Shown here: piece by piece, positions 5,308-52,600 of the stretch
How the letters are laid out: each line of letters starts with the position of its first letter
How positions within the stretch are numbered: the stretch's first letter is position 1
NCBI GenBank assembly: GCA_036514895.1
Contig: DATBWH010000051.1
Location: 122-64,121 of the forward strand
Origin: Candidatus Humimicrobiaceae bacterium
GTDB taxonomy: Bacteria > Actinomycetota > Humimicrobiia > Humimicrobiales > Humimicrobiaceae
Length of the DNA: 64,000 nucleotides
Reading direction: 5' to 3'
Translations under genes and position numbers: made by a program
The notes under the pieces: generated by a model
What the model was told of the DNA's origin: nothing
Seen by the model: the letters and a program-made list of their open reading frames with translations, nothing else
Databases searched by the model: none

Positions 5308-6561
5308 TTAATGCCCCTCGGTAAGTGCCTTTATAAATATTGCCATATAGCAGAATGCAATAGGCGGAAAACTGACAATAGTAAATATCAGACCTCTTGA
5401 CATACGTTTATTTTCCCTTGATTCTATGATATTAAAGACCAGACTTAAAAGGAACAAAATACCTGATGCTATCATTAGTAGTCCGAAAAATCCCATAGCA
5501 ATATAGCTTTCCCAGCCCAAACCTATCTCGACACTCAGGAGAATCGTGAGCAGCCAGAATACAAGAGTCAGATAACCGCCTATCAAGACGGCCAGCCCTA
5601 AATTTTTGTTTCTTTTGGATAAGTCTATATTACCTTCCCTGGAAACCAGGTCCGGACCTTTTTTATTGAAATATAAAGTACTTGCTGAAAACAGCAGCAA
5701 AACCAGAAATATATAAAAAGGAAACCAGATTTCGTTGAAAAAATTAAGAGAACTTACAAAATATTGAGCAATAAAGATCAGTGCCATTATAATTACAGAC
5801 GCTACAAGAGTAACAAGACTTGCCCTTGTTATATCCTGGTACTGCTTTTCATCATACCATTCGGTTATCCTTTCGTTTAGTTTGATTACCAGCCAGTATA
5901 AAACTATCAGGACATACGGAATTACAGCTACGAGACTTATTACGACAACACCTGCATCTATAGCCCATGACGGTAATGGATATACCGTCAAGGATAAGAC
6001 AGAAAAAATTGTAATCAGAATCAAACCTGAAATTCCACTCAATATTCCTATATATTGTGCATTGATAAATATAGAATCGTCTTTCAAGACAACCTCTTCG
6101 CTCTTTTTCAAAATCGACTTTCTGGTTAATATAAGGAGGACAATCATGAGAATATAAAAAACAAAATGAAGCGCCTGACTGACAAAAAGAATGTTAAACT
6201 CACCCGGTAATCCAAATATATATTCTTTCGAGATGTCGCTCGCAAGCGCGAAGTCTCCAAGCAGCATCAGCAGAGAAACGGTACCGGTAAAAAATAGAAA
6301 GGCACGAAGGAAATTTTCTCTTTTAAAAAAGTTTAACTGCAGTATCAGAGTAAACATGGCAGACAAATGAAATAAAACGAAAATACAGTATACTAAGGCA
6401 ACCGGAATCGAAAACTTATTCATAAAACTTTCGACGTTTCCCATATTGACTATTTTATCCCTGAGCATTAAAAAGAAAGTGTTTGTGAATATAAGGCCTG
6501 CAATCGAAATCAAACATAAAATCAATGTGGTGGTATTGCTTATTTTTAATAGTCGTTTCAT
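5308..6561 (-). CDS. Polytopic integral membrane protein of unknown function
   Basis: A 417-aa ORF with about 10-12 hydrophobic segments. It lies immediately downstream of an XRE HTH regulator. Confidence 0.6.
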   Translation of the reverse strand: MKRLLKISNTTTLILCLISIAGLIFTNTFFLMLRDKIVNMGNVESFMNKFSIPVALVYCIFVLFHLSAMFTLILQLNFFKRENFLRAFLFFTGTVSLLMLLGDFALASDISKEYIFGLPGEFNILFVSQALHFVFYILMIVLLILTRKSILKKSEEVVLKDDSIFINAQYIGILSGISGLILITIFSVLSLTVYPLPSWAIDAGVVVISLVAVIPYVLIVLYWLVIKLNERITEWYDEKQYQDITRASLVTLVASVIIMALIFIAQYFVSSLNFFNEIWFPFYIFLVLLLFSASTLYFNKKGPDLVSREGNIDLSKRNKNLGLAVLIGGYLTLVFWLLTILLSVEIGLGWESYIAMGFFGLLMIASGILFLLSLVFNIIESRENKRMSRGLIFTIVSFPPIAFCYMAIFIKALTEGH

Positions 6562-7809: not shown

Positions 7810-9282
7810 ATGAAAATTTTACTTGTTTATCCGGATTATGAAGAAACATTCTGGAGCTTTAAGAAAGTTTTAAAAATATTAGGTAAAAAAGCTGCTTACC
7901 CTCCTCTGGGTTTATTAACTGTTGGTGCCATGCTTCCCGATAGCTGGGAGAAAAAACTGGTTGATATGAATACGGATATTTTAAAAGATGAATATATCAA
8001 ATGGGCGGACTACATTTTTATAAGCGCGATGATCGTACAAAAAGAATCGACCAGGAGAGTAATAAATAAGATTAAGAAATTCAAAAAACCTATCGTTGGC
8101 GGCGGACCCCTCTTTACTACCGGTTGGGAAGAATTTACTGATGTGGATCATATCTTTTTAGGGGAAATAGAAAATACCTTTTCGGAATTTGTCGGGGATT
8201 TAGAAAAAGGTACTCTTAAGAAAATTTACTCCGGTAACGAATTCCCCGATATTAAAAAAATTGCTATTCCGGACTGGAATTCTATTAAGACTAAAAATTA
8301 TAATTCATTGTGTATTCAACTCTCCCGGGGCTGTCCTTTTAACTGCGAATTCTGTGACGTGGTGCAATTGAATGGAAGAATTCCCCGGTTTAAAAGCAAG
8401 GAACAATTGACCGATGAACTGGAAGCTCTTTATAAAAGAGGATGGCGTGCCGGTGTATTCTTTGTAGATGATAATTTTATTGGAAACAAAGCTATGCTTA
8501 AAAAAGAATATCTGCCTCTGATTATAGAATGGCAGAAAAATAAAAAATATCCTTTCAGTTTCAACACTCAGGTTTCGATTAACCTCGCTGATGATAATGA
8601 TCTCATGGAATTAATGGTACAGGCGGGCTTTACAGCCGTATTTATAGGAATCGAGACACCCGACGCAGGCGGTCTGGAAGAATGCGGCAAGCTTCAAAAT
8701 AAAAATAGAAACCTGATAGAATCGGTAAAATTAATTCAAAATGCCGGTATGGAAGTTCAGGGCGGATTTATAGTAGGTTTCGATAGTGACAAAATATCGA
8801 TTTTCCAGCGTCAGATCGAATTCATCCAGAAAAGCGGAATAGTAACCGCTATGGTCGGTCTGCTTACCGCGCTGCCAAAAACCAGATTATATCAGAGGTT
8901 AAAAGAGACAAAACGATTGGTTAAAAGAACATCAGGCAATAATACTAGAATCGCAGGTTTGAATTTCACTCCCAGAATGGATAAAAATGTTCTTATAAAC
9001 GGCCATAAGAAAGTATTATCTACTATTTATACTCCAAAGGCTTATTATGAGAGAGTCAAGACTTTTCTCAAAGAATACAGGCCGGCCAAAAGAAAGACAA
9101 AAAAAATTCGCATCTATCACATAAGGGCACTTATTGGCTCGATCTGGTGGCTTGGCATTAAACAAAAAGGAAGACCCTACTACTGGAAATTGATTTTATG
9201 GAGTCTTTTCAGGCGGCCTTCTCTTTTCCCTTATGCAATTGGTTTCTCCCTGACCGGAATCCATTTCAGGGCAATATCGTAG
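7810..9282 (+). CDS. B12-binding domain radical SAM protein (class B rSAM, DUF4070-type C-terminus)
   Basis: The N-terminal region is cobalamin-binding-like (MKILLVYPDY...PPLGLLTVGAML). The CxxxCxxC radical SAM motif is present as SRGCPFNCEFCDV. Confidence 0.85.
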   Translation: MKILLVYPDYEETFWSFKKVLKILGKKAAYPPLGLLTVGAMLPDSWEKKLVDMNTDILKDEYIKWADYIFISAMIVQKESTRRVINKIKKFKKPIVGGGPLFTTGWEEFTDVDHIFLGEIENTFSEFVGDLEKGTLKKIYSGNEFPDIKKIAIPDWNSIKTKNYNSLCIQLSRGCPFNCEFCDVVQLNGRIPRFKSKEQLTDELEALYKRGWRAGVFFVDDNFIGNKAMLKKEYLPLIIEWQKNKKYPFSFNTQVSINLADDNDLMELMVQAGFTAVFIGIETPDAGGLEECGKLQNKNRNLIESVKLIQNAGMEVQGGFIVGFDSDKISIFQRQIEFIQKSGIVTAMVGLLTALPKTRLYQRLKETKRLVKRTSGNNTRIAGLNFTPRMDKNVLINGHKKVLSTIYTPKAYYERVKTFLKEYRPAKRKTKKIRIYHIRALIGSIWWLGIKQKGRPYYWKLILWSLFRRPSLFPYAIGFSLTGIHFRAIS

Positions 9283-31091: not shown

Positions 31092-32349
31092 GCCCCCCGC
31101 TTTTTATTCTATTGATAAATGCCGGTACATAGCCTGTATAAACGAACTCCGTACTGCCGCCGGTGTTACTTCTTGCTTCATTATTTCCATCCTGGTATCT
31201 GAAAATATCTTTGACTTCCAGGATGGTATTACTGCCAATTGATTCATTTTTATTTATAAGCTCGCTTATTTTCAATAGCATCCTTTTGCCATTCTTTAAT
31301 TTTCCCAGATGGATTATCAAATCAATGGATGATGCTATCATCCTCCTGGCAGTTGAAGGAGTCAGATTCAGCTTTGACATCAGTATCATCGTCTCCAATC
31401 TGCTGACCAGATCTTTGGGTGAATTGGAATGAACCGTGGTCATCGAACCACTGTGACCCGTGTTCATCGCCTGAAGAACATCTACAGCTTCTGCTCCCCT
31501 GATTTCTCCCACTATGATCCTATCCGGTCTCATTCTCAAAGAGTTCCTAACCAGATCCCTGATAGTTATTTCTCCTTTTCCTTCAAGATTCGGATGCCTG
31601 CTCTCTAGCTTGATTATATGGGGTAAATTCAAATTTAATTCCAGTGTTTCCTCTATAGTGACGATTCTCTCATCGGGCGGGATGAAATTTGAGATAACAT
31701 TCAAAAATGTTGTTTTTCCTGTAGATGTAGCGCCACTGACTATTATATTCAACCTGCTCTTTACACAGATCTCAATAAAATCAGCTATTTTTTTGTTTAT
31801 ACTTCCGGATTTTTCCAGACTATCAATGTCTATTATATTTTTTTTGAATTTCCTTATGGTAACTACTATGTCGTTTACTGTTACCGGACTTAAAACTACA
31901 TTGATCCTTGACCCGTTTTTAAGCCTTGCATCCACCATAGGGGAACTCTCATCCAATCTGAGGCCGAGAGGGCTTAATATTTTATCGACCAGGTTTCTGA
32001 TATGATTATTGTCCCTGAAAATAATATTTGTTTTCCTTATTGCATCATTTTCTTCGATATAGACCTGGTCAAAATTGTTTATCATAATTTCAGTTATTTT
32101 TTTATCATTTATGAGGAAGCTGACGGGCCCGAAACCAAAGCTGTCTTCATTGATTTCTCCTGCCAGCCTGTAAATTTCTTTCTGGCTGATTATGATCTTT
32201 TTTTCGTCTGCTATTTCTTTTAAATATTTTTCGATTCTCCTGAGCCTCTCTTCAGGCAAGAATTTGTTCAAATCTTCCGCTTTGATCTTTTTTGATATCT
32301 TCTTACTTAAATAATTTAAAATATCCTTATCATTAAAGATCGAACTCAT
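31057..32349 (-). CDS. cpaF: Tad pilus secretion ATPase CpaF/TadA
   Basis: Walker A VSGATSTGKTT and a T2SS/T4SS ATPase core (IVGEIRGAEA). Length 430 aa. Confidence 0.9.
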   Translation of the reverse strand: MSSIFNDKDILNYLSKKISKKIKAEDLNKFLPEERLRRIEKYLKEIADEKKIIISQKEIYRLAGEINEDSFGFGPVSFLINDKKITEIMINNFDQVYIEENDAIRKTNIIFRDNNHIRNLVDKILSPLGLRLDESSPMVDARLKNGSRINVVLSPVTVNDIVVTIRKFKKNIIDIDSLEKSGSINKKIADFIEICVKSRLNIIVSGATSTGKTTFLNVISNFIPPDERIVTIEETLELNLNLPHIIKLESRHPNLEGKGEITIRDLVRNSLRMRPDRIIVGEIRGAEAVDVLQAMNTGHSGSMTTVHSNSPKDLVSRLETMILMSKLNLTPSTARRMIASSIDLIIHLGKLKNGKRMLLKISELINKNESIGSNTILEVKDIFRYQDGNNEARSNTGGSTEFVYTGYVPAFINRIKSGGLDYKFEYENLG

Positions 32350-33110
32350 TTATTCAAATCCTCATATATTTTTTTTGAAAAAGCAGAAATGTTACTCACA
32401 ATTCTAAGATTGTAACTAAAAATGGAATCAGGCCCTTTATTCAGCATTAAAAATTCTATATCCCTGTCATATGGAATAAAAGCATTAACCGGGTAGCTTA
32501 AAATTGTGTTTATACCTGTGAGCGAAACAGCAGGCCTTATATTGAATTTATTTATCGTTATATCAAAATCATAAGAGAATTCATCAATAATTATACTTTT
32601 GACCAGCACATTTAGATTATTTACTGAAATAAAGTCCGGCAGGGAAATAAAAATGTATTTATCGACTCTGTCTTTTAGTCTGAATTTATCCTGAGTAAAT
32701 AAATAATAAGGAAAATCCACACAGATTATATCAAAATGCTCCTTGAGAATATCCAAAAGCTTCTCAAAATATTCTTTACAAAAAATCTTATTTTTCTCGA
32801 TTTTTATGGGTGGTAATATCAGATTCAGACTGTTCTTTAAATTGATCACAAGTCTTTTTAGAATAGAGTCATCCATCTCATTCATGACTTCTTCAATATC
32901 TCCCAGGTCCCTATAACTATCATCAGTAAGATTGAAAATCAGCCTGCTGTCTCTTTTTCCTATATTTAGATCAAGCAGTAATATATTCTTTGTAGTCTCT
33001 CTGGCAAAATAAGTCGAGACGCAATAAGTCATAAAACTACAGCCGCAGCCTCCTTTGCTTCCGGTAAATAGTATGATCTTTGACTCTTCTCCATTCAGTT
33101 TATTCATCAT
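32346..33110 (-). CDS. CpaE/TadZ-like ParA/MinD-fold protein with degenerate P-loop
   Basis: The motif ILFTGSKGGCGCS sits where a deviant Walker A (KGGxGKT) is expected. Its position between cpaB and cpaF matches tadZ/cpaE. Confidence 0.6.
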   Translation of the reverse strand: MMNKLNGEESKIILFTGSKGGCGCSFMTYCVSTYFARETTKNILLLDLNIGKRDSRLIFNLTDDSYRDLGDIEEVMNEMDDSILKRLVINLKNSLNLILPPIKIEKNKIFCKEYFEKLLDILKEHFDIICVDFPYYLFTQDKFRLKDRVDKYIFISLPDFISVNNLNVLVKSIIIDEFSYDFDITINKFNIRPAVSLTGINTILSYPVNAFIPYDRDIEFLMLNKGPDSIFSYNLRIVSNISAFSKKIYEDLNK

Positions 33111-40123: not shown

Positions 40124-40200
40124 TACGTTCTCCTTTAAATATATTAATATAAAAGTATGATCCTGTATCCTTTTATTTCGAAACTTGTTAATATTTAACT

Positions 40201-40362
40201 TGGTCGGGATGGGGGGATTTGTTCTTTCGTCTCGCTTCGCTCGCTGCAGAGACGCAGACTCCCTCGCTGACGCTCAGTCCGTCTTTTCAAATCCCGTAAA
40301 TATGCCACTGGTATGTTTACCTGCAATAATTTTAAAATTTCTCATGCTTTTTAACCTAAATC
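40201..40362 (-). repeat. Degenerate tRNA-like remnant sharing the 3'-terminal 21 nt (and the 5' CGGGAT) of the adjacent tRNA-Pro
   Basis: TGGTCGGGATGGGGGGATTTG at 40201-40221 is identical to 40364-40384. The intervening 142 bp is GC-rich with internal hairpins and has no T-stem partner. Confidence 0.6.
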
Positions 40363-40441
40363 TGGTCGGGATGGGGGGATTTGAACCCCCGGCCTCAGCG
40401 TCCCGAACGCTGCGCGCTAAACCAAGCTGCGCTACATCCCG
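40363..40441 (-). tRNA. tRNA-Pro (anticodon CGG)
   Basis: The minus-strand sequence CGGGATG TA GCGC...CAGCG TTCGGGA CGCTG...GGGGG TTCAAAT CCCCC CATCCCG A CCA folds as a cloverleaf. The anticodon loop is UUCGGGA, with G37 and an encoded CCA. Confidence 0.85.
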
Positions 40442-40619
40442 ATCAAACAATCCCTACTTGAGCATAATATATTCTATCAACTCCGGATAGGATTTAAAAG
40501 AAAATAAAGGTGTTAAAATTATAGGCAAAATCATCTTTTAAAAAACCTCACAAAGTAGTATAAATCTAAGAATATATTTAAGTATATATTTTTGACGTTA
40601 ATTTTAATTTATTTGTAAT

Positions 40620-52523: not shown

Positions 52524-52600
<77 letters not shown>

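Follow-up and report, generated by a model that had tools for sequence, protein, structure and literature searches.

A small folded insertion element behind tRNA and tmRNA genes of uncultured Actinomycetota that ends in a duplicate of its host gene's 3' end

The stretch of DNA analyzed here, 64,000 nucleotides from a Candidatus Humimicrobiaceae bacterium (referred to as the window), includes an intact tRNA-Pro(CGG) gene followed by a 162-bp segment that ends in a second copy of the last 21 nucleotides of the gene. Comparisons with related genomes showed that this segment (40201-40362, minus strand) belongs to a family of small insertion elements, non-autonomous and located behind tRNA and tmRNA genes, and that the body of the element encodes a conserved fold on the tRNA-sense strand, composed of a hairpin and a three-way junction. 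The 3' ends of tRNA genes are classical landing sites of large integrative elements. The element described here would be a different and minimal occupant of such an end, a folded nucleic acid of about 110-150 nucleotides that leaves the gene undamaged and whose own structure is supplied in part by the target. Stated in general terms, it is very probably an element specific for tRNA 3' ends that is mobilized in trans and whose duplication is derived from the target. The more specific explanation that we favor, a non-autonomous mobile element with this specificity that was probably inserted by a target-primed mechanism, has in our judgment a somewhat better than even chance of being correct.

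The host gene (40363-40441, minus strand) was identified with ARAGORN and Rfam (RF00005, 65.8 bits). It encodes its own CCA and is identical in a related species (contig L001; the loci collected for comparison are designated by the letter L and a number). Its last 21 nucleotides, CAAATCCCCCCATCCCGACCA, extend from C56 to A76 and comprise the 3' part of the T-loop, the 3' strands of the T-stem and of the acceptor stem, the discriminator and the CCA. Two exact copies of the 21-mer (TGGTCGGGATGGGGGGATTTG) are present in the window, a proximal repeat inside the gene (40363-40383, minus strand) and a distal repeat downstream in the same orientation (40201-40221, minus strand), with a start-to-start spacing of 162. 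These two matches were the only ones in the 64 kb even when three mismatches were allowed, and chance matches were found in 0 of 100 shuffled sequences. The repeat, which had been noticed in an initial annotation of the window, is therefore real. Also in agreement with that annotation, which held that the core between the repeats cannot form a cloverleaf, neither program called a second tRNA; the sole call was 40363-40441, and only 21 nucleotides of the segment are tRNA-derived. Two other descriptions stood only in part. The "GC-rich 140-nt core" is an insert of 141 nucleotides, in which a 43-nucleotide AT-rich spacer precedes approximately 98 nucleotides of GC-rich, structured sequence. The CGGGAT motif that was taken for a copy of the tRNA 5' end does recur (40291-40296), but it belongs to a family-conserved (C)GGGATTYGAA, the complement of the T-loop, which is present in copies whose hosts have other 5' ends. 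An open reading frame (ORF) of 101 amino acids that runs antisense to the element and overlaps the tRNA gene (40185-40490, plus strand) had been set aside as an artifact. That view is reasonable: when translations of the conserved core of the element were searched against 5.8 billion proteins, the few matches were all unnamed or "hypothetical" ORFs, and nothing supports the frame as a protein.

Six contigs of the same species were obtained by exact look-up of two flanking proteins. The 162-bp segment was present in five of them and absent from the sixth, L081, which is 99.98% (tRNA side) and 99.84% (other side) identical to the window over 10 kb. In L081 the CCA of the tRNA runs straight into the flank, and exactly one repeat plus the 141-nucleotide body is missing; the boundaries of the insertion can be slid anywhere inside the repeat. 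The comparison of strains proposed in the initial annotation was informative, and that annotation was right to read the repeat as a sign of mobile DNA at the 3' end of a tRNA gene. Apart from the missing segment, L081 matches the occupied contigs L082 and L083 in haplotype. The stretch between its insertion point and the next gene (L081:4903-5000, compared with window 40127-40200) contains five private single-nucleotide polymorphisms (SNPs) within 75 nucleotides, and there are none elsewhere in about 10 kb. Such a cluster may be a tract of co-conversion, or homologous recombination may have moved an old allele. Because the five SNPs are clustered next to the site, the empty and occupied alleles look older than the surrounding genomes and were probably exchanged by homologous recombination. 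The related species represented by L001 (87% identity) is homologous to the window up to the very 3' end of the tRNA-Pro gene (window 40362) and not beyond it. A lipoprotein-like gene replaces the VOC gene after tRNA-Pro in that contig (L001:1-1172), which ends 1.2 kb further on.

Related elements were collected in two ways. A search of metagenomes with a 20-mer from P3, the most conserved hairpin of the element, matched 14 contigs, 11 of which carry true homologues; L088, L090 and L091 were rejected as chance matches of 20-22 nucleotides in GC-rich coding DNA. A search of protein databases with translations of the conserved core, which appear there as spurious ORFs, added seven further loci. 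A covariance model built from 15 copies with Infernal (R1) then recognized 30 copies in the collected loci of related uncultured Actinomycetota (Humimicrobiia-like) and a single copy in the window, and it gave no matches in loci from other phyla or in those of the same lineage that are unrelated. Neither BLAST nor the covariance model found another copy in the window, where the tRNA-Met(CAT) gene (52524-52600) has no element behind it. Searches of phage and plasmid collections with the core returned matches to the tRNA part only. No element match was found in Rfam 15 (E ≤ 10 in the window, E ≤ 1 in four other loci), where the hits were tRNA, tmRNA and chance matches, and a full-text search of the literature found no description of the family, which is apparently undescribed so far.

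The element is small, non-coding, present in multiple copies and polymorphic for insertion. The body measures about 108-178 nucleotides across the family, and the unit including the repeat 129-199 bp. All 30 copies are in the tRNA-sense orientation, and the sequence immediately 5' of each is a tRNA gene, a tmRNA gene or a further copy, always on the same strand. There are two exceptions: L097-B is preceded by a toxin-antitoxin gene pair, and in L092 the copy is cut by the start of the contig, which leaves the upstream gene unseen. Fourteen host genes are represented: Pro-CGG, Pro-GGG, Pro-TGG, Asp, Lys, Leu, Arg-ACG, Arg-TCG, Arg-TCT, Ser-GCT, Ser-TGA, Ser-CGA, Trp and tmRNA. Copies often occur as tandem pairs (L093, L095, L100, L112 and L113), and the copy number differs among orthologous tRNA clusters of related genomes (L098, L101, L112 and L114). 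In a tandem array the tRNA-proximal copy is the newer one: the only copy in L086 has its orthologue in L093c, and L093b was inserted between L093c and the tRNA. Decayed copies also exist. Between tRNA-Arg(TCT) and tRNA-His, L098:471-584 retains the start of the spacer, part of the hairpin HP1 and the end of the repeat, while P2 and P3 are deleted. In L097:1818-2841 the toxin-antitoxin pair, of the MNT-HEPN type, is flanked on one side by a full copy that follows tmRNA and on the other by a 5'-truncated one formed by P2, P3 and the repeat only, and a 1-nucleotide insertion missing from the tmRNA gene is common to both distal repeats. The MNT-HEPN pair was considered as cargo of the element and rejected: both the module and a tRNA are missing from ten loci whose HEPN proteins are 77-89% identical, and the association looks like a one-off.

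The consensus structure obtained with RNAalifold consists of HP1 followed by the three-way junction of helices P1, P2 and P3. Read in the tRNA sense, that is, along the minus strand of the window, the element starts with the AT-rich 5' spacer (40320-40362), which is unrelated to the downstream flank of the window and varies in the family from 7 nucleotides in L112 to about 50. The hairpin HP1 (40297-40319) is conserved in the family with compensatory changes; that of the window has two mismatches (C.A and A.C) and is slightly decayed. Next comes the 5' strand of P1 (40286-40295, GGGATTTGAA), complementary to tRNA nucleotides 54-63 and called here the guide, which includes the CGGGAT motif mentioned above; L097-B has neither HP1 nor guide. 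The P2 helix (40256-40284) is interrupted by two internal loops rich in GA and capped by a tip hairpin of variable length, which is missing in the L114 copies and 32 nucleotides longer in L099, and it is followed by the nearly invariant hairpin P3 (40228-40254, CGUCUCUGCAGCGAGCGAAGCGAGACG). The junction strand (G)AAAGAA (40222-40227) is the invariant 3' junction of the element and always abuts C56 of the distal repeat. The first 8 nucleotides of this repeat (40214-40221) form the 3' strand of P1 with the guide, and the last 13 (40201-40213) are an unpaired tail ending in ACCA. Likewise, in the family the guide is an internal 8-10-nucleotide complement of the T-loop and T-stem, and the 13-nucleotide tail that is left ends in NCCA.

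The window copy alone folds into P1-P3, and the comparative evidence for the fold, for P2 and P3 as for the other parts, comes from the family alignment and covariation. In 26 distinct copies, standard pairs occupied 96% of the cells, compared with 31-51% when the partners were slid, and double-sided changes were found in 19 of 34 pairs; these values were reached in 0 of 500 shuffles, a statistic to be read with the common descent of the copies in mind. The single-sequence energy z-score of the duplicate (-1.06) was uninformative, and it is the comparative fold that is decisive. Since G.U cells outnumber A.C cells (38 and 12, respectively), the tRNA-sense strand is the one that folds. Hammerhead, twister-sister, pistol, hatchet and HDV-like ribozymes were considered and rejected, as none had an Rfam match and the junction strands are unlike the hammerhead core. 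A k-turn or box C/D RNA was rejected as well: there was no Rfam match, and the guide lies farther from the CUGA motif than a box C/D guide would allow. The sequence GCGAAGC, which forms an unusually stable DNA mini-hairpin, is present in P3 and in some P2 tips (for example, L095:1110-1125). Through this mini-hairpin the fold may be relevant as single-stranded DNA. Because a consensus scan detected no terminator-like site between tRNA and element, and because many copies sit between the tRNA genes of one cluster, the element would most likely be co-transcribed with the tRNA. The same kind of scan located a promoter-like site upstream of the tRNA-Pro gene (TTTAAA-16-TAGAAT with TG, 40471-40498, minus strand). 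The alternative offered in the initial annotation, a structured tRNA-derived small RNA, comes closer; the tRNA-derived part, however, is limited to the 21-nucleotide tail, and the element behaves like an insertion element and unlike an ordinary small RNA gene.

Every copy of the element ends with the last 21 nucleotides of its own host gene, mostly with zero or one mismatch (three in one old copy), and the body does not follow the host. The copies L086 (Asp) and L093a (Lys) have bodies that are 86% identical, spacer included, and repeats that match at 11 of 21 positions, while the two Asp copies in L093 have bodies that are 72% identical and repeats that match at 21 of 21. As the similarity of the bodies is independent of the identity of the tRNA, we infer that insertion generates the duplicate from the target and that the element does not carry it. 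The tRNA is left intact because the copy is made downstream. The guide covaries with the host T-arm across five T-arm variants: guide GGGATTTG pairs with CAAATCCC (Pro and Asp), GGGATTCG with CGAATCCC, and GGGACTTG with CAAGTCCC (Leu), and the guides for two tmRNA variants are GGGAGTCG and GGGAATCG. Unlike the repeat, the guide is inherited and not copied from the target: a Lys-type guide is found at an Asp site in L093c (8 of 10 positions match), and the Arg-ACG and Ser-TGA copies show one guide mismatch.

The two junctions of the element differ. The distal repeat starts at C56 in all copies, and the base that precedes it is A or C, never the T of the tRNA. The total length of the duplication ranges from 21 to 72 nucleotides. 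The extension of the identity past the CCA is 0-7 nucleotides in most terminal copies, 17 nucleotides at the tRNA-Trp/secE locus of L116, where it results in a perfect 38-nucleotide repeat, and longest in L096 (about 36 nucleotides) and L114 (51 nucleotides). An extension of at least 3 nucleotides was observed in 7 of 18 terminal copies and in 7% of mismatched control pairs (permutation p ~0.0004). An exact 3' junction, combined with a 5' junction that varies and shows microhomology and with a duplication of no fixed length, is characteristic of target-primed insertion; a transposase with a fixed stagger or a tyrosine recombinase would not leave such junctions. The possibility that the spacer is a duplicated native trailer, the insert being the guide, P2 and P3 only, was rejected: spacer and flank are unrelated, and the empty allele has neither spacer nor HP1. 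This rejection covers the window and most copies, and the proposal is partly true for L116, L096 and L114. Partial units formed by the spacer, or by the spacer and HP1, follow the distal repeat of a full copy at L114:9966-10050, L114:11485-11559 and L096:6046-6082.

These observations can be assembled into a model of insertion. The antisense strand of the tRNA gene would be nicked in the conserved T-box, the sole sequence common to all tRNA genes, between nucleotides 55 and 56, freeing a 3' end of the form ...GGGAYTYG. The freed end would anneal to the CRAAUCCC of an element transcript, where it would replace the guide in P1, and would then be extended across the element to the 5' end of the template. 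A cut of the sense strand at the CCA, or at a variable distance beyond it, would prime the second strand, and microhomology would serve for joining. The predicted product consists of tRNA nucleotides 1 to 76+n, the body, and nucleotides 56 to 76+n, with the tRNA intact. Such a model accounts for the invariant 3' junction, the variable lengths of spacer and duplication, and the occasional mismatches between guide and target. Considered on its own, this target-primed mechanism acting in trans is a tentative proposal, to which we give slightly less than an even chance. A bolder formulation, in which the element is the first bacterial counterpart of short interspersed nuclear elements (SINEs) or a nucleic-acid-guided insertion system whose guide selects tRNA and tmRNA genes, is possible but doubtful. 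If insertion were guided, the T-loop complement of the transcript and its primer-binding segment would pick the targets, the transcript would be copied into them by synthesis primed at a T-box nick, with the tRNA end restored, and a change of guide would retarget the element.

Several points weigh against target-primed insertion of a mobile element. No reverse transcriptase, transposase, Cas1 or tyrosine integrase was found among the ORFs and called genes beside any copy examined. The window has no such enzyme either: housekeeping genes account for all the Pfam-scanned ORFs of at least 220 amino acids and for all genes called around the site, in agreement with the initial annotation, which saw neither integrase nor cargo nearby. 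To our knowledge, target-primed retrotransposition of a SINE-like element is without precedent in bacteria. The RNA form of the element is deduced from genomic context. The shuffle statistics are inflated, because the alignment behind the covariation counts had been fitted to the model and many of the copies share descent; the changes are nevertheless plain in the raw alignments, as in the double compensatory change in P2 from GGAC/GUCC to GAGC/GCUC (L093b), the several types of HP1 stem, and a compensated HP1 difference between two neighboring tandem copies in L112. Gene conversion among the copies within a genome could explain part of the similarity of bodies across tRNAs. The long extensions in L096 and L114 could be relics of deleted tandem copies, and the L114 units made of spacer and HP1 only are not predicted by a target-primed model. 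Finally, the local polymorphism may reflect the exchange of alleles by homologous recombination and not a fresh insertion.

Other explanations were weighed against the same observations. One of them supposes a 162-bp circle that carries nothing but an attP, with the 21-nucleotide core and its arms, and that is integrated and excised in trans by a tyrosine integrase of the T-loop class. A block of identity that begins in the T-loop and continues to the end of the tRNA, as found here, is reportedly the classical footprint of that class among the sublocations of integration in tRNA genes (attributed to Williams 2002, Nucleic Acids Res). Arrays in tandem at a single tRNA are typical of integrase sites, the empty site is free of footprints, and neighboring tRNA genes in L101 and L115 harbor recombinase islands, though with serine recombinases. 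A conservative recombinase, however, needs a core that is already carried, and bodies that are 86% identical bear entirely different cores. In addition, the GAAAGAA to the left of the distal core is unrelated to the 5' strand of the T-stem, there are no inverted core-type sites, and the identity past the CCA has no constant extent. Compensatory changes in hairpins and the excess of G.U indicate a folded single strand instead of double-stranded arm sites, and no copy has an integrase nearby. For these reasons, we consider integration of such a circle unlikely.

The recombinase genes just mentioned are probably parts of separate islands at or near tRNA genes. In L101 a large serine recombinase of 501 amino acids (L101:7618-9123; domains Resolvase, Recombinase and Zn_ribbon_recom) ends inside the 3' part of tRNA-Leu(TAG) (9077-9163) and borders a block of small unknown genes, which is probably a separate island integrated at that tRNA. 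In L115:187-3745, downstream of the element behind tRNA-Ser(CGA), there are a 354-amino-acid serine recombinase, HTH proteins and a DUF5372 protein. Another variable segment at tRNA-Leu(TAG) is found in L114:6430-9323, where two ORFs of 397 and 385 amino acids with no Pfam match lie between the trigger-factor gene and the tRNA; both are missing from the orthologous region L112:8279-9829. In the window, two further ORFs had no Pfam match at E ≤ 1e-5: one of 417 amino acids (5308-6561) and one of 254 amino acids (32346-33110), the latter within a gene cluster resembling Tad/type II secretion systems.

Equally improbable is that the element is a fragment of a DNA transposon inserted through widely staggered cuts by a Cas1-like casposase or another transposase that recognizes the T-box, with gap filling producing the 21-bp duplication. 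Casposons do insert at the 3'-distal end of tRNA genes, form tandem arrays and generate duplications of 14-35 bp (PMC4779613), and a ruler starting at the conserved T-box would always end after the CCA. Against such an origin, the element has no terminal inverted repeats, its left end is not conserved, and its 30 copies share one orientation, compared with both orientations for casposons at a tRNA-Leu site (PMC4779613). Furthermore, the duplication is variable and not fixed, neither cas1 nor polB lies near any copy, and a strand-specific, RNA-like covariation would have no explanation.

A third possibility is a structured RNA module of tRNA operons that serves the host in processing, as a decoy or in regulation, with a tRNA-like 3' tail, and that spreads by local duplication, gene conversion and homologous recombination only, with no transposition. 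The strong conservation of structure, down to compensatory changes between neighboring tandem copies, is consistent with such a role, as are the probable co-transcription with tRNAs, a 3' tail that equals the 3' strand of an acceptor stem plus NCCA, and alleles that look old and exchanged by recombination. Local duplication, though, cannot place the module behind 14 non-homologous hosts with 21 matching nucleotides at each. A host function also fits poorly with copy numbers that differ between orthologous clusters (L098, L101, L112 and L114), with the tolerance of decayed copies and with closely related strains that have no element, and we regard this explanation as very unlikely.

The initial annotation had favored a decayed attachment-site remnant, in which the repeats are the attL and attR of a larger island and the hairpins are meaningless. 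The tRNA 3'-end repeat with no integrase left and the break of synteny in L001 exactly at the tRNA 3' end would agree with it. This reading is extremely improbable: random decay would not leave a unit of similar size behind 14 tRNA and tmRNA genes in many genomes, with 96% of the cells paired, 19 covarying pairs and a repeat that matches the local tRNA. Conserved sequence and covariation in relatives, the outcome that the initial annotation itself had named as contradicting a scar, is what was found. No match to the insert ends or the P3 pattern was found in viral contigs as evidence of a parent island; unit ends were likewise found in no phage or plasmid, and no larger element with both ends was found among 18 loci. 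Integron attC sites, IS91 (with its GTTC target) and IS110 bridge RNA were rejected on their generally known properties, which involve no 21-nucleotide duplication or leave the tRNA broken.

Even on a conservative view, the element is a new and well-supported structured RNA or DNA motif with a covariance model. If target-primed or guide-directed insertion were confirmed, a retroposon-like or programmable insertion mechanism would be added to those of bacteria, and it would point to a further enzyme in a class of uncultured Actinomycetota about which little is known. One source of the partial-tRNA repeats that pipelines annotate as att scars or as spurious ORFs would also be explained.

With respect to known systems, the element would appear to work most like a SINE, and its landing site is shared with tRNA-targeting integrative elements and casposons. 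Its size and copy number, its hairpins and its presumed dependence on an enzyme supplied in trans recall miniature inverted-repeat transposable elements. It differs from them in that its right end, ...GACGAAAGAA, has no inverted partner, its left ends are not conserved, and its duplication is variable and at least 21 nucleotides long. In the omega-RNA and PATE units of IS200/IS605 elements, as here, a structured scaffold is followed at the 3' end by about 20 nucleotides that match the neighboring target. Those systems make no duplication, whereas the present element duplicates its target, and it has neither an Rfam match to omega-RNA nor a nearby tnpA or tnpB. Casposons share with it the 3'-distal insertion in tRNA genes, duplications of 14-35 bp and tandem arrays, but they are several kb long, have terminal inverted repeats, encode cas1 and polB, are found in both orientations and have a fixed duplication for each casposon (PMC4779613). 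The likeness to cis-mobilizable elements (CIMEs) and other tyrosine-integrase elements includes the direct repeat from the T-loop to the 3' end, accretion in tandem, integrase-less units between att-like repeats and an empty site free of footprints. In contrast to them, the unit is only 129-199 bp long, the extent of its repeat is variable, its body is constrained as a folded single strand, and its core follows the host tRNA while the body stays constant, which is not the behavior of a carried core. No remains of an integrase or of island genes were found in the ORFs of the window or around other copies.

The comparison with SINEs and other non-autonomous retroposons without long terminal repeats (non-LTR), eukaryotic elements that insert by target-primed reverse transcription, is the closest. 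The present element differs from SINEs in being bacterial, with no partner reverse transcriptase seen in the collected loci, and in having neither an internal Pol III promoter nor a poly(A) tail. It also inserts at one exact nucleotide of the T-loop with regeneration of the tRNA, and its tRNA-like part is made from the target and not inherited. What it has in common with them is that it is small, non-coding and multi-copy, that a precise 3' junction is found together with a variable or truncated 5' end and a variable target duplication, and that a structured RNA, predicted in our case, has a tRNA-related 3' part. Among such elements, the TRE elements of Dictyostelium are targeted to tRNA genes and the R2/SIDE elements bear ribozymes (PMC3414825, PMC5391098). 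The use of tRNA or rRNA genes as safe havens and co-transcription with the host gene, the latter probable for the present element, are further points in common.

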